From a virus, in the UHGV virus genome UHGV-0181023: DNA of 16,382 nt, one strand, 5' to 3'. The first letter of the stretch is position 1. Every line of letters begins with the position of its first letter. Of the stretch, positions 4,754 to 10,152 are shown in pieces. Under the pieces are notes generated by a model. It made no database searches. It worked only from the letters and a program-made list of their open reading frames with translations, and had not been told where the DNA came from. A program made the position numbers and the translations under genes.

Positions 4754-5335
4754 TTACTTAATATCTGTTTCGGATTGCATGCCATGAGTATTCATTTCGT
4801 TAATAATTTCATCCAGAAGGATTTCAAGCCCTTCTCGACCCATATCTGAAAGAATGAAACCTTTATCAGGGGAAGTAGTGAGCATTTTCTGATAAAGAAA
4901 CAGCGCTCTTCCCATTCCTTCAGCTTCGCCGTATTTTTGAATTAAATTCCATTCAATATACTGTTGTAAGGCAAATCGAATGGGGCCGGGATATATCGTC
5001 ATAAACCCATACATCCCGTTATATACCACGGCGTGTTCAGTTGTTCCGTGTTCATTCAGGATATCAATTGTGCCGTTCTTGTCTTCTTCTTCGTTGATGA
5101 ATGTCGTCACATACAACCATCGCCACTGAGCAACCTTCATCTCAACCGGAAGTTTACCCAGTAATCCTGCTTCGTCGGCTTGCGCCAGACACTGAAGGAT
5201 ACGTAAACCTCGCACATTAGGAGTATCGAATTCTCCGGCATCCAGACGACGTATGGCGTCGTGATAATCAATCGTCATACTGCCAGTTCGTATACCATTG
5301 GCTGTTGCTTCAGCCTGGAATTCATCGTATTGCAT
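4754..5335 (-). CDS. hypothetical protein, 193 aa
   Basis: ORF track; ATG 5 nt after the stop of the upstream 60-aa gene; protein-like composition; no family recognised. Confidence 0.7.
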   Translation of the reverse strand: MQYDEFQAEATANGIRTGSMTIDYHDAIRRLDAGEFDTPNVRGLRILQCLAQADEAGLLGKLPVEMKVAQWRWLYVTTFINEEEDKNGTIDILNEHGTTEHAVVYNGMYGFMTIYPGPIRFALQQYIEWNLIQKYGEAEGMGRALFLYQKMLTTSPDKGFILSDMGREGLEILLDEIINEMNTHGMQSETDIK

Positions 5336-5340
5336 GATAT

Positions 5341-5523
5341 TTATTCCTCATCTTCATCTGCTGGTGCAATAACGTCATATCCTGCCTTTTCTGCAATAAA
5401 CAGGAATGTTGAAAGAGTTCCTACAAGTTCATCGTCATGAACATGGCGAATGAATATTACTTTCCCGTTTTTGATGGTCAGCAATACTCTGGTTTGTTCG
5501 TGTTCTGCTGTTTTCTGATGCAT
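5341..5523 (-). CDS. hypothetical small protein, 60 aa, acidic C-terminus
   Basis: ORF track; SD GGGAGAT upstream of ATG at 5523. Confidence 0.6.
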   Translation of the reverse strand: MHQKTAEHEQTRVLLTIKNGKVIFIRHVHDDELVGTLSTFLFIAEKAGYDVIAPADEDEE

Positions 5524-6905: not shown

Positions 6906-7595
6906 CTAACCAAATCTGTTTATATTGAATGGTACTGATGAGATCACTTTAGACTGGATATAAAGCAGAGCTAACCCCTCTTTTTCGATGCTCCATGGTT
7001 GATAATTGGGGTTATCAGATAACACCATGATTTTGCTTCCAATTTTTTGAAGTCTTTTCACGTAGCATTCTCCATCAAAACAAAATGCATAAATGCCATC
7101 GCCATCAAAATAAGTTACTGTCTTATCAAGAAAAAGAAGGTCGCCAGGTGAGATTGTGGGAGCCATACTGTCTCCTCTGGCGTTACCTATTTCTATATTT
7201 TTGAATGCCCGATTTCCAACAAGGCGTCGGGCATATTCAGGATCAAGTTCTATTGAGCGCACTACATCTATCAAGTCACCACGGACATGAGTTCCATCAC
7301 CGCAACTAAACTCAACATCAAGGACATTAAACACGACGCTATCTGTTCTTGTCTGGTGTTTCTCTTGCGAGGAAAAGGTTGGTGAGGAGTCTTCACCTAA
7401 GAACCAGGATTGTGGATAACCGCTAATCTCGGATAAATGCGCGAGCTTATCACTCCGTGGAAATGTTTTTCCTGTTGTCCAGTACTGCACTGATTGCGCA
7501 CTCACACCTAACTTGCGGGCCAGTTGAGCCTGAGTCCATCCTTTTGCTTTCAGCATCGCGGCTATTCGATTTTCCGTGTTTTTGACGTTCTTCAT
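6906..7595 (-). CDS. cI: CI-type prophage repressor (N-terminal HTH, C-terminal LexA-like S24 peptidase domain)
   Basis: HTH GWTQAQLARKLGVSAQSVQYW; peptidase motifs GDSMAPT (Ser) and YVKRLQ (Lys); ORF track lists a TTG at 7601, ATG at 7595 preferred; divergent from the cro-like gene. Confidence 0.9.
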   Translation of the reverse strand: MKNVKNTENRIAAMLKAKGWTQAQLARKLGVSAQSVQYWTTGKTFPRSDKLAHLSEISGYPQSWFLGEDSSPTFSSQEKHQTRTDSVVFNVLDVEFSCGDGTHVRGDLIDVVRSIELDPEYARRLVGNRAFKNIEIGNARGDSMAPTISPGDLLFLDKTVTYFDGDGIYAFCFDGECYVKRLQKIGSKIMVLSDNPNYQPWSIEKEGLALLYIQSKVISSVPFNINRFG

Positions 7596-7728
7596 GACCA
7601 AATCCTGTGGGTTTCTTTACAAGGATAAATCTTTACTTGATTTTAGTGTATTCGATCCTTTTGCAACTTGCATGTTAATTTAAACTTGATGTATTCTTGA
7701 TTTATAAAGTTAATGTTGGTGCTTTGTT
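7596..7728. promoter_or_regulatory. immunity-region operator/promoter intergenic region (PRM/PR analog) with three direct copies of an ACTTGAT-type motif
   Basis: 133-bp AT-rich spacer between divergent repressor and cro-like genes; motifs at 7635..7642 (ACTTGATT), 7684..7691 (ACTTGATG), 7695..7702 (TCTTGATT); candidate PR elements TTGATG (7687..7692) and TAATGT (7711..7716). Confidence 0.6.
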
Positions 7729-8001
7729 ATGAAAGGAAATGATTACGACAAACTTCGTGCATTAATTGCGCAAAATGCCATAGCGCGAAATCTTGGTGTG
7801 ACGCCGCAAGCGGTGAATCAGTGGTTTTCAAAAAACACAATTCCTGCTCGTTTCGTTTTACGCGTATGTGAAGTAGTTGCATGGAAGGTCACGCCACATG
7901 GCTTAAGGCCAGATCTTTATCCTCACCCTGAAGATGGAATTCCTGATTCGTTACGCAAAATTTCAAATCCAAGCTTAGCGCACACAGAGGACGAGAAGTG
8001 A
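7729..8001 (+). CDS. cro: Cro-like regulator of the YdaS/Cro-CI HTH family
   Basis: 90-aa ORF divergent from the repressor; motif LGVTPQAVNQW...LRPDLY resembles Rac YdaS-type Cro analogs. Confidence 0.8.
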   Translation: MKGNDYDKLRALIAQNAIARNLGVTPQAVNQWFSKNTIPARFVLRVCEVVAWKVTPHGLRPDLYPHPEDGIPDSLRKISNPSLAHTEDEK

Positions 8002-8041
8002 TGGTGGTGATATGAGCGAAAAAATAACTATTAAATACGAT

Positions 8042-8064
8042 GGGGCAACCATTTCGATTGCCCC
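8042..8064 (-). terminator. candidate hairpin downstream of the 8072..8365 gene (weak terminator candidate)
   Basis: Inverted repeat GGGGCAA...TTGCCCC with 9-nt loop; a T-rich tract follows on the minus strand but about 15 nt away, so not canonical. Confidence 0.25.
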
Positions 8065-8071
8065 AATCACA

Positions 8072-8365
8072 TTAGCGTTCGCTGAGAAGTTGTTGGTAAG
8101 CCTTAAAGGATGCGAACTGCATTCTACCTTCGGCATTGATTCCAATGCCTTCGCTTGTACACCAGGTGATGAACTCGGCTGTATCCGCTTCAACTTTAAT
8201 AACTCGTTGCCCGCTTCTTTCGACACGCTTAATCAATTTTTCAGCGTCGTGTTTCCACTCGGTGTAACTGTCGGAGAGCACATCAGCATCAGTAAAAATA
8301 TTTTTGAGCTCATGATACTGAATCGCATCGCGAAACCAGAATAAACCAACGGCCTGAACTTTCAT
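8072..8365 (-). CDS. hypothetical protein, 97 aa, encoded opposite to the early-right operon (moron-like)
   Basis: ATG at 8365 with AAGGAGG 6 nt upstream; protein-like charged composition; competes with the overlapping plus-strand ORF 8012..8344. Confidence 0.55.
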   Translation of the reverse strand: MKVQAVGLFWFRDAIQYHELKNIFTDADVLSDSYTEWKHDAEKLIKRVERSGQRVIKVEADTAEFITWCTSEGIGINAEGRMQFASFKAYQQLLSER

Positions 8366-8484
8366 GTCGAACCTCCTTTGGTTCTTTTGTTTATAGGGAT
8401 CAAAAGGATAACTGAAGGAAGGTTCGGCACCAATAAGTACGAATGTGCGGAATCTTAAAAGAATTTATCCGTAAGGAGATGGCA

Positions 8485-9192
8485 GTGAACACCGCAATTT
8501 TTAACGACAAAGCATCCATGACCAGCGTTGAGATCGCAGAGCTGGTGGGTAGTCAGCACTCAGATGTTAAACGTAGTATCGAACGCCTGGTTGCTAAAAA
8601 CATCATCCGGAAACCGCCAATGGCTGTTTCCGAGAAAATCAATAACTTAGGTTTTAAAGTTCAATATGAGCATTACCTGTTTGAAGGAGAACAAGGTAAG
8701 CGCGACAGCATCATTGTCGTCGCACAGCTCTGTCCTGAATTCACTGCTCGCCTGGTAGATCGCTGGCGCGAACTGGAAGAACAGATCCGTAAGCCAATGA
8801 GCGAAATCGAAATGGTTGCCGCGATGGCTCTTGAAGCAGTTCGTCAGCAGAAACGGATCACTCAGGTGGAAGAAAAAGTCAGCCACGTTGCTGAAACAGT
8901 CGAGCAAATTAAAAAGGGCACTATTCGTGAGGGCTATGCCGGATATCGCCAACTGAAAGCAAAAACCGGTTTGTCAGATGATAAATGCCGCAATCTGGTG
9001 AACGCCTATCAAATTCCTACAGACACACATGAGTTCATGACGCCGGACGGATTGTTGTCACGTCGCGCAATTGTTGCTGTGGAACCGTTTATGGCTGCTT
9101 TTTATCGGGTTATGGAGGAAGCAGAACCGCGAGGGACTCGCTGGTATCACCCGAAAATGGGGTTATTTCAGGTTATTGGTTGGCAGCGGTGA
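8485..9192 (+). CDS. Rha-family-like phage regulatory protein (N-terminal DNA-binding domain, unknown C-terminal domain); start uncertain (ATG 8443 or 8479, GTG 8485)
   Basis: ORF-track frame 8443..9192; AAGGAG at 8473..8478 abuts ATG 8479 (spacing too short) and is 6 nt before GTG 8485; motifs SVEIAELVGSQHSDVKRSIERL and EHYLFEGEQGKRDSIIVVAQL resemble the Rha N-terminal domain. Confidence 0.65.
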   Translation: MNTAIFNDKASMTSVEIAELVGSQHSDVKRSIERLVAKNIIRKPPMAVSEKINNLGFKVQYEHYLFEGEQGKRDSIIVVAQLCPEFTARLVDRWRELEEQIRKPMSEIEMVAAMALEAVRQQKRITQVEEKVSHVAETVEQIKKGTIREGYAGYRQLKAKTGLSDDKCRNLVNAYQIPTDTHEFMTPDGLLSRRAIVAVEPFMAAFYRVMEEAEPRGTRWYHPKMGLFQVIGWQR

Positions 9193-9215
9193 AAAAAAGC
9201 CGGGAGTAACCCGGC
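9192..9215 (-). terminator. terminator-like hairpin reading on the minus strand (GCCGGG-AGTAA-CCCGGC followed by T7)
   Basis: On the plus strand an A7 run precedes the hairpin with no T tail after it, so it functions as a terminator only for leftward transcription. Confidence 0.35.
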
Positions 9216-9414
9216 TCACTCAACATCAATAACGGGGAGCTGTTTCGCATAAAACGGCTCCGAAACATCCAAGAACAGTTCTAAAGATATCAGCAGCTAT
9301 ATGATCATTTCAAGACCAAATATTGATTCTGCAATTTCGGGACGTTACACTGTCTCTGCACCTTATAAAGCGGGTGCCGGGGGTCGCAGCCCGGAATTGT
9401 CAACGGCGATATAT

Positions 9415-9434
9415 GACGCGCCAGCGTCTTTTTT
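9415..9434 (+). terminator. terminator-like hairpin (GACGC-GCCA-GCGTC followed by T6) inside the spacer upstream of rha
   Basis: 5-bp GC stem, 4-nt loop, T6 run; within a frame that is open but looks non-coding. Confidence 0.3.
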
Positions 9435-9600
9435 ATCGTCCGCGCTCACGCACGCCAGAATTATGGTGGGCTGGGCAGGGGAGCCGAAAGGCTCGCCGGT
9501 CTCCGTTGACGCCGGTACTGCGAACCCTGTTCAGTCTGCCACCAGTGAGTTTCGCAGCTCCGGTGGTGGAAGTTTTCCACAGTCAACGGAGGCTGCCATC

Positions 9601-10152
9601 ATGGCTACGATCCCAACCCTCACTCAACCTGAAATTGCCATCGTTGATGGTCAGGCTGTTACTTCATCCCTGGCTGTTGCCAACTTCTTCTCCAAGCGTC
9701 ATGACGATGTACTGAAAAAGATCCGCACGCTTGAATGCTCCGCATCATTCACTGCCCGCAATTTTTCGGTGAGTGATTACACCGATTGCACAGGCCGCAA
9801 ACTACCTTGCTATCAAATCACCCGCGACGGTTTTGCGTTTCTTGCCATGGGCTTCACTGGTAAACGTGCTGCCCAGTTCAAAGAGGCATACATCAACGCC
9901 TTTAACCTGATGGAGAAGAGTTTATCAGGTGCCGATGCGTCTGATATGTCAGCTGTCGCACGAAACGCCAGAGGCGTATACCTGCATTTGCGTGAAATCC
10001 ATCAAATCTGGACAAGCCAGCTTTATCCAATGCTTAAGGCCGTTGAATCTCCGCTGGCTAGCAAACTGTACGACCGTGTTGGTGATGCTGTTTTTGGCGC
10101 TGCACTTGTTGATTCCAGGCTGAATGGTTCTGACAAGGAGGTTCGCCCATGA
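9601..10152 (+). CDS. rha: Rha family phage regulatory protein
   Basis: ORF-track frame 9301..10152; ATG at 9601 has GGAGG 8 nt upstream; product QPEIAIVDGQAVTSSLAVANFFSKRHDDVLKKIR...YQITRDGFAFLAMGFTGKRAAQFKEAYINAFN matches the Rha pattern; the 100 codons upstream are low-complexity G/S/A-rich. Confidence 0.8.
   Translation: MATIPTLTQPEIAIVDGQAVTSSLAVANFFSKRHDDVLKKIRTLECSASFTARNFSVSDYTDCTGRKLPCYQITRDGFAFLAMGFTGKRAAQFKEAYINAFNLMEKSLSGADASDMSAVARNARGVYLHLREIHQIWTSQLYPMLKAVESPLASKLYDRVGDAVFGAALVDSRLNGSDKEVRP

Follow-up and report, generated by a model that had tools for sequence, protein, structure and literature searches.

A conserved 97-residue protein encoded antisense to the early-right operon of an Escherichia coli lambdoid prophage, a candidate lysogen-expressed moron gene

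Introduction

Between cro and two Rha-family genes, the early-right (PR) operon of the virus genome UHGV-0181023 contains a 97-amino acid (aa) open reading frame (ORF) on the opposite strand, hereafter ORF97, which raises the question of whether it is a gene at all and, if so, what a gene directed against its surrounding operon is for. The stretch analysed (16,382 nucleotides [nt]; hereafter, the window) is an Escherichia coli lambdoid prophage that in strain SCU-105 adjoins mlrA (Pfam and PHROG support). An initial annotation, made from the sequence alone, had described ORF97 as typical of morons expressed from the lysogen, with conversion, exclusion or anti-repressor functions, while an overlapping plus-strand ORF made the strand assignment uncertain. 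The moron concept reportedly originates with Juhala and co-workers in 2000.

The existence of the gene is not new, as ORF97 is already annotated as hypothetical. It belongs to phrog_4753, a family of more than 1000 sequence clusters that has no Pfam, NCBIfam or PADLOC entry and has a strikingly constant placement in temperate phages, behind cro and antisense to PR. The comparisons below settle the strand and place ORF97 in an inserted cassette. The explanation favoured here, with confidence slightly better than even, is that ORF97 is a moron cargo gene that is expressed in the lysogen and shut off once induction sends PR transcription through the cassette. Should the protein turn out to influence exclusion, stress tolerance or the lysogeny decision, a function would be gained for a large uncharacterised family, and the cro-proximal slot would be marked as a site for lysogen-expressed cargo.

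Results and Discussion

Coding strand

ORF97 matched phrog_4753 over its full length (residues 1–97 on profile positions 1–97 of 97, E = 1.8e-49) and, together with the pattern of substitutions, this match confirmed the minus-strand gene predicted between cro and the Rha genes as real. The overlapping plus-strand ORF is present as described (8012–8344, 110 aa); its product had a weak partial PHROG match as its sole hit (E = 0.015) and no match in Pfam, NCBIfam or PADLOC. The two reading frames are exact codon-for-codon antisense partners. ORF97 has a single TTA, CTA or TCA codon, which gives the plus-strand stop (8342–8344), and it is because of this rarity that the plus frame stays open. The same antisense frame carried 0–2 stops in every homologue examined, at any distance, and its openness is therefore uninformative.

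When the window was compared with the Phytobacter and Klebsiella orthologues, 52–53 of the 75–77 substitutions fell at ORF97 codon position 3. Changed codons were mostly synonymous in the ORF97 frame (41–42 synonymous to 17–22 non-synonymous) and mostly non-synonymous in the plus frame (7 to 52–56), with amino acid identities of 78–83% and 43–47%, respectively. Judged by these substitutions, ORF97 is under purifying selection (the non-synonymous rate, dN, being much lower than the synonymous rate, dS) and the strand question is closed in favour of the minus strand. There is next to no chance that the plus-strand ORF is itself the gene and is co-transcribed with cro from PR: it runs uninterrupted for 110 codons in the orientation of the operon and an equivalent ORF is annotated in Elizabethkingia phage EKP1, but it has no family, its codons change in the manner given above, its openness follows from codon alignment with ORF97, and its ATG (8012) has no Shine-Dalgarno-like purine run upstream.

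At least one deposited phage genome carries the shadow ORF annotation instead of the gene: in EKP1 (OM284015), positions 5001–5396 are annotated as ‘hypothetical protein 21’ and the phrog_4753 gene is missed. In its early region, EKP1 shares its gene order with Klebsiella prophages (Q, a 623-aa Toprim/AAA_25 protein and DUF4222), an unexpected finding for a phage ascribed to Elizabethkingia.

An inserted cassette

Escherichia phage PhiR49_2 (PV340570) has the same cI and cro (95% identity), with cro overlapping roi directly. In an alignment with the window, homology stopped near 7984 and restarted near 8483, such that ~498 bases in the window correspond to ~29 bases in PhiR49_2. The additional segment consists of a new C-terminal tail for cro, a hairpin spacer, ORF97, the 119 bases upstream of it and the ribosome site of roi/rha. 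PhiR49_2 is thus a natural empty site that defines the cassette to a few bases and provides a ready isogenic pair. The initial view of ORF97 as a moron within the early-right operon held up against this near-isogenic phage: by presence and absence between otherwise collinear phages, ORF97 conforms to the definition of a moron and, on the same alignment, the cassette is dispensable cargo added to a functioning operon.

The cassette has been joined to many backgrounds. Across 33 E. coli loci from IMG/VR, the ORF97–rha unit was joined to at least five different cI/cro pairs, and in Klebsiella and Phytobacter the cassette was joined to other replication modules. The last ~11 codons of the window cro (..NPSLAHTEDEK) are a cassette-side mosaic segment; four unrelated Cro types (window 7969–8001; L016, L017, L024, L028) end alike in ..(H/N)PSLAHT(E/G)(D/E)EK and, because unrelated Cro proteins share this tail, the mosaic joint can be placed in frame within those codons. 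The 531 bases of the ORF97 region were 100% identical to prophages of several complete E. coli genomes, cassette-related copies occurred in 94 of 5426 complete E. coli genomes (chromosomal in every case), and at least 1000 E. coli, Salmonella and Shigella contigs encoded the exact ORF97 protein.

A second E. coli allele with 85% identity (L068–L071) occupies the same place, and its 120-nt upstream region is identical to that of the window. The allele differs at 15 of 97 residues (11, 5 and 16 substitutions at codon positions 1, 2 and 3), and such divergence next to an identical upstream region indicates either that the cassette has recombined internally or that the protein evolves faster. In one E. 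coli IMG/VR prophage (L027, 4295–4820), transposase-like ORFs, probably of an insertion sequence element, lie directly past the ORF97 stop and replace the hairpin and cro.

Table 1. Features of the window around ORF97 and loci with a family member in the equivalent position.
Feature	Position	Strand	Remarks
Integrase and excisionase, then leftward early genes			Before cI in the prophage gene order
cI, S24-type	6906–7601	minus	
cro, YdaS/P22_Cro-type helix-turn-helix (HTH)	7729–8001	plus	Convergent with ORF97; Pfam YdaS_toxin, 1.6e-12
Inserted ~0.5-kb cassette	7985–8482		Alignment with PhiR49_2 (PV340570)
Shadow ORF, 110 aa, not a gene	8012–8344	plus	Codon-aligned antisense of ORF97
GC hairpin	8041–8065	minus	Starts 7 nt past ORF97 stop; terminator-like scan match
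ORF97, 97 aa + stop	8072–8365	minus	RefSeq WP_000867914.1 ‘hypothetical protein’; phrog_4753; PGAP-annotated
Long inverted repeat, 19 bp, arms 8365–8383 and 8410–8429	8365–8429		Spans ORF97 start, Shine-Dalgarno sequence and candidate promoter spacer
Weak terminator-like hairpin GAACCTCCTTTGGTTC, then T-run TTTTGTTTAT	8369–8394 (hairpin, 8369–8384)	plus	Scan match
Shine-Dalgarno AAGGAGG	8372–8378	minus	G/A-rich GGAG core kept in all orthologous cassettes
Promoter candidate of the initial annotation: TTCAGT 8416–8411, 15 nt, TATAAA 8395–8390	8390–8416	minus	E. coli cassettes only
Candidate promoter: −35 TTGGTG 8433–8428, 17-nt spacer, −10 TATCCT 8410–8405	8405–8433	minus	Position kept in all cassettes
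roi/rha1, first PR-operon gene past the cassette	8485–9192	plus	Divergent from ORF97; Pfam Phage_pRha, phrog_63; PGAP start 8485
Second Rha-family gene	9301–10152	plus	
Small ORFs, DnaC-like, DnaB-like, DUF968, antiterminator Q			After second Rha-family gene
Loci following the positional rule			Window, L005/L044, L006–10, L045, L047, L048, L004, L014, L051, L056, L061, L068
Klebsiella prophages L006–L010			cro slot, before two different replication modules
Phytobacter L005/L044			cro slot
Three further IMG/VR phages, L045, L047, L048			cro slot
Phage EKP1, L004			cro slot, 34% identity
Four metagenomic phages, L014 (34%), L051 (33%), L056, L061			cro slot

Expression from the lysogen

ORF97 is oriented like cI and opposite to PR, which rules out its expression from PR, and transcription from PRM proceeds in the direction away from it. 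Lying antisense to a lytic operon and having a promoter of its own is characteristic of accessory loci expressed in lysogens (Owen et al. 2020, PMC7067206). Like morons and such loci (e.g., STMMW_20121 of ST64B, PMC7067206), ORF97 lies on additional DNA that separates two genes which are direct neighbours in a related phage and is antisense to lytic genes, with its own ribosome site and 3′ hairpin. It differs from them in occupying the cro-proximal PR operon and not the classical PR′, tail or lom/bor sites, in having a candidate promoter only, and in having no sequence relation to known conversion genes.

As moron cargo, ORF97 would have a weak leftward promoter in the 65 conserved nt that precede its ATG, and its protein would be produced in the repressed prophage, with PR inactive. 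On induction, transcription from PR would cross the cassette toward roi/rha and the replication genes, collide with the leftward transcription and silence ORF97 by antisense, while transcription of ORF97 would for its part counteract leakage from PR through the cassette. The ORF97 protein would bind a partner independent of immunity type, either a host component or a superinfecting phage, and the lysogen trait arising from this binding may be, for example, exclusion or stress tolerance. An exclusion or conversion function, as initially put forward, is possible.

The anti-repressor function also put forward is disfavoured in its repressor-specific form, as the same or almost the same protein is found alongside several unrelated repressors. 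Since Cro proteins vary in the same way, immunity proteins of its own phage are an unlikely target of ORF97. No anti-repressor match to ORF97 was found in Pfam or PHROG, the Phage_pRha domain sitting on the neighbouring genes instead. A related possibility derives from the transcription factor–small ORF (TF-smORF) induction modules of temperate phages (Silpe et al. 2023, PMC10432266), in which case the divergent Rha/Roi would activate ORF97 and ORF97 would inactivate the repressor. ORF97 is likewise a small gene divergent from a DNA-binding gene near the immunity region, across ~119 nt, in all 33 E. coli IMG/VR loci and the window, and the logic resembles that of the published modules. However, this pairing is confined to E. 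coli (the partner differs in Klebsiella, Phytobacter and metagenomic phages), PhiR49_2 has roi without ORF97, ORF97 proteins with 98–100% identity accompany at least five unrelated repressors where the known smORFs are repressor-specific, and a folded protein of 97 aa is larger than these smORFs. Such a module is highly improbable.

Several observations weigh against ORF97 as lysogen-expressed cargo. No defence, exclusion or conversion family matched ORF97 in Pfam, NCBIfam or PADLOC. A sigma-70 scan of 7500–8600 returned no site, with shuffled sequences giving a mean of 1.7, and the T-run after the GC hairpin downstream of ORF97 is interrupted, so that the hairpin is no textbook terminator and termination there is uncertain. 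The position is not universal: in the Klebsiella phage Kp4865-4 the family member lies to the left of cI, in one phage represented by L054, L057 and L059 it follows a small XRE gene beside tail genes, and the family also occurs in non-phage chromosomal settings. The strict placement beside cro (and beside cII in L014 and L051) may mean a role in the switch and not cargo.

Start site, promoter candidates and hairpins

The start described initially could be read directly from the sequence, with ATG at 8365 preceded by AAGGAGG (8378–8372), a strong ribosome site, and the 6-nt spacer TTCGAC. For the promoter proposed upstream (TTCAGT, 15 nt, TATAAA), the hexamers are present; conservation and the scan did not support it, as the match to consensus is 8 of 12 with a short spacer and TATAAA is replaced by a CAACTA-type sequence in L005, L006, L045 and L048, the Klebsiella and Phytobacter cassettes included. 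Conservation among the E. coli, Phytobacter and Klebsiella cassettes starts at TTGG(T/A)G, 65 nt before the ATG, and continues through the ORF to the hairpin. This sequence forms the −35 of a second, weak candidate promoter, TTGGTG-17-TATCCT, which has 7 of 12 matches, below the scan threshold, and for which the −10 reads TATTCT, GATACT or GATATT in other cassettes. Rfam had no match in 7500–8600.

The GC hairpin predicted downstream of ORF97 was recovered and was considerably more stable than shuffled sequences (−19.9 kcal/mol, z = −4.1). Across nine distinct cassettes, 93% of pair cells were paired in ORF97-sense RNA compared to 82% for the opposite strand. Five positions of the hairpin vary, and all 11 one-sided changes produce G.U or U-A in the sense RNA and A.C in the opposite RNA, with zero double-sided changes. 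Because changes keep the pairing only in ORF97-sense RNA, the hairpin likely acts on the ORF97 transcript, either as a terminator or as a 3′ stabiliser. A boxB-like reading of this element was rejected, as the loop sequence is not conserved.

Upstream, the inverted repeat GAACC-N6-GGTTC overlapping the ribosome site is present (8384–8369), as initially noted, and proved no stabler than shuffled sequences (−6.3 kcal/mol, z = +0.6) and unconserved in orthologues. On the plus strand, the weak terminator-like element of Table 1 has a 5-bp stem, overlaps the complement of the ORF97 Shine-Dalgarno sequence and is not conserved in other cassettes. A longer inverted repeat (8365–8429) has a predicted fold of −29.3 kcal/mol (z = −3.45) in PR-sense RNA and −22.4 kcal/mol (z = −1.8) in ORF97-sense RNA. 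In seven of eight cassettes, 16–19 of its 19 pairs are kept, including plus-strand-only G.U pairs; L047 keeps 12 of 19. The repeat might give a stem of the RNase III type immediately before the ribosome site of roi/rha. The folds did not support a stem that sequesters the Shine-Dalgarno sequence in ORF97 mRNA, since this fold did not outperform shuffled sequences (z = −1.8) and the opposite strand pairs better.

These elements raise the possibility that the cassette is mainly cis-acting, an insulator or attenuator between cro and the early genes operating by convergent transcription, the long repeat and the weak plus-strand hairpin, with the protein secondary. The lambda terminator tR1 lies at the position that the cassette occupies, and both the terminator-like element on the PR-sense strand and the conserved 19-bp stem with its strand-specific G.U pairs would fit such a function. 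A mainly cis-acting cassette is nonetheless very unlikely given the strong conservation of the protein (dN much lower than dS, and an invariant D26), the breakage of the long stem in L047 and the lack of conservation of the short hairpin.

A conserved slot behind cro

In at least 12 phage backgrounds, a homologue with 33–85% identity directly followed a cro-type HTH gene, facing cro and oriented in the same direction as cI (Table 1). The gene on the side opposite cro varies, and is a Rha gene in E. coli, replication genes or small ORFs in Klebsiella, and a phage 186-type CII (Phage_CP76) gene in L014 and L051. Small genes upstream of the homologue in L013 and L051 had no mutual similarity. Burkholderia phage Bcep176 gp17 lies in a six-gene block, also between a cro-like gene and cII. 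Among cultured phages the family is rare (three phages among 50,697 records). A scan of genome contigs returned one locus, and a degenerate DNA motif scan returned nine viral loci, of which eight were true family members.

In lambda, transcription from PRE starts in the interval equivalent to the ORF97 slot. ORF97 occupies the same slot as the PRE transcript and OOP RNA of the lambda cro–cII interval, is directed the same way toward cro and cI, and antagonism with PR is expected; in contrast to PRE and OOP, which are non-coding in that interval, the ORF97 cassette encodes a conserved protein and is followed by a hairpin. ORF97 might accordingly be an accessory of the lysis–lysogeny switch, the first gene of a leftward establishment transcript (like those of lambda PRE and phage 186 pE) that begins beside the activator gene and passes antisense over cro to cI, with either the protein or its transcription biasing the decision toward lysogeny. 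The retention of position across these backgrounds, down to 33% identity, and the divergent CII gene in L014 and L051 agree with such a role, and the poor −35 and −10 would be accounted for by a weak promoter that depends on an activator. Against it, no CII gene, detectable CII homologue or CII-type repeat was found in the window, transcription onward to cI would be hindered by the conserved hairpin that immediately follows ORF97, PhiR49_2 does without the cassette although it otherwise matches, the divergent neighbour varies, and the family is found outside phages. A switch accessory is considered unlikely.

The non-phage copies (Syntrophorhabdus-type and other metagenome-assembled genomes of anaerobes; L012, L063, L064 and L049) are single genes. 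In three of the four contexts the neighbours include genes of redox metabolism or the oxidative stress response, namely ferritin/rubrerythrin with flavin reductase, Fur with catalase-peroxidase, and a flavodoxin-like gene, and in the fourth a toxin-antitoxin pair adjoins the family gene. No constant partner gene was found among the four chromosomal contexts, and the neighbours offer a weak hint of a stress-related role within the cell.

Protein family and predicted fold

A profile search of 1.84 billion representatives identified 1118 phrog_4753 family members at E ≤ 1e-3, nearly all of them standalone proteins of 90–110 aa, with a few tandem repeats. All 114 relatives scanned matched phrog_4753 only, and for these and ORF97 nothing rose above noise in Pfam or NCBIfam; when the window proteins were run against PADLOC, ORF97 had no defence model (0 families at E ≤ 1). 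ORF97 is a member of the same length and with the same motifs as the rest of the family, which is uncharacterised, Bcep176 gp17 included. The motifs are G..WY, D26, LP.TY..W, DP.EF..WC and DA.AR..FA. Among the 114 relatives, D26 is invariant and W10, W37, G52, W68, C69 and R81 are near-invariant. A literature search by accession, PHROG identifier and gene position returned nothing on ORF97; papers on the Stx ‘bully phage’, anti-small RNA (anti-sRNA) and TF-smORF systems describe other elements.

The protein is 11 kDa and slightly acidic (isoelectric point, 5.65). Its maximum 19-residue hydropathy of 0.42 indicates the lack of a membrane segment and contradicts the name ‘membrane protein’ given by one source where others give ‘hypothetical protein’. 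AlphaFold2 predicted a β-α-α-β-α-α fold with 13 sequences (predicted local distance difference test [pLDDT], 87) and the same fold with 114 sequences (pLDDT, 95.4; predicted template modelling score, 0.84; all five models ≥94). On this model, ORF97 is a compact soluble domain without HTH, membrane segment or recognisable catalytic motif.

The sole structural neighbour of the model was SO3848 of Shewanella oneidensis (PDB 2OX6), to which sequence similarity was not detectable (11–14% identity). When PDB sequences were searched with a profile, neither 2OX6 nor any other credible match was recovered, and the matches of a fold search of BFVD were limited to two viral proteins, both uncharacterised. 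SO3848 is Aca2/YdiL-like with an N-terminal HTH, and its C-terminal part comprises an elongated β1, an additional helix, a parallel β2 and two further helices (PMC8434428). By that description, the ORF97 model shares the C-terminal topology, a two-strand parallel sheet plus helices; unlike SO3848 it has no HTH, the β-α-α-β-α-α domain filling all 97 residues, and Aca2 and YdiL were not among the fold matches. The likeness is a fold resemblance in the models and not demonstrated homology, and the confident fold has as its putative neighbour the unexplained half of a structural-genomics protein. Identity as an Aca2-type regulator was ruled out, as neither ORF97 nor longer family members have an HTH. 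No HTH fusions were found in the longer members, in which N-terminal extensions look like miscalled starts.

A broader proposal would treat phrog_4753 as an unrecognised and widespread element of the lambdoid switch in temperate phages of Proteobacteria, tail-to-tail with cro, an HTH-less relative of the SO3848/Aca2 C-terminal module whose antisense transcription, possibly together with the stem in PR RNA, tunes lysis–lysogeny or prophage competition. This proposal is speculative and distinctly unlikely.

Two further architectures were observed among the relatives. Some proteins (P0020, 506 aa; P0037, 319 aa; P0025, 206 aa; locus L052) carry two or three tandem copies of the domain with coiled-coil-like linkers, and the three-copy protein P0020 adjoins an AbiEi_4 gene. 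In the IMG/VR phage of L054, L057 and L059, a 79-aa XRE-type HTH gene followed by the family member resembles a split version of the HTH-plus-domain architecture of SO3848.

Neighbouring genes

The flanks named in the initial annotation, cro and two Rha genes, were borne out by Pfam, PHROG and PGAP. The Rha-family regulators are in tandem (8485–10152), the first matching the PHROG ‘anti-repressor Ant’ and the second having an N-terminal Ash domain. The first (8485–9192) is homologous to Roi of PhiR49_2. Its start is ambiguous among ATG 8443, ATG 8479 and GTG 8485; GTG 8485, the PGAP choice, is the only one with AAGGAG at a normal distance and agrees with the start of Roi in PhiR49_2.

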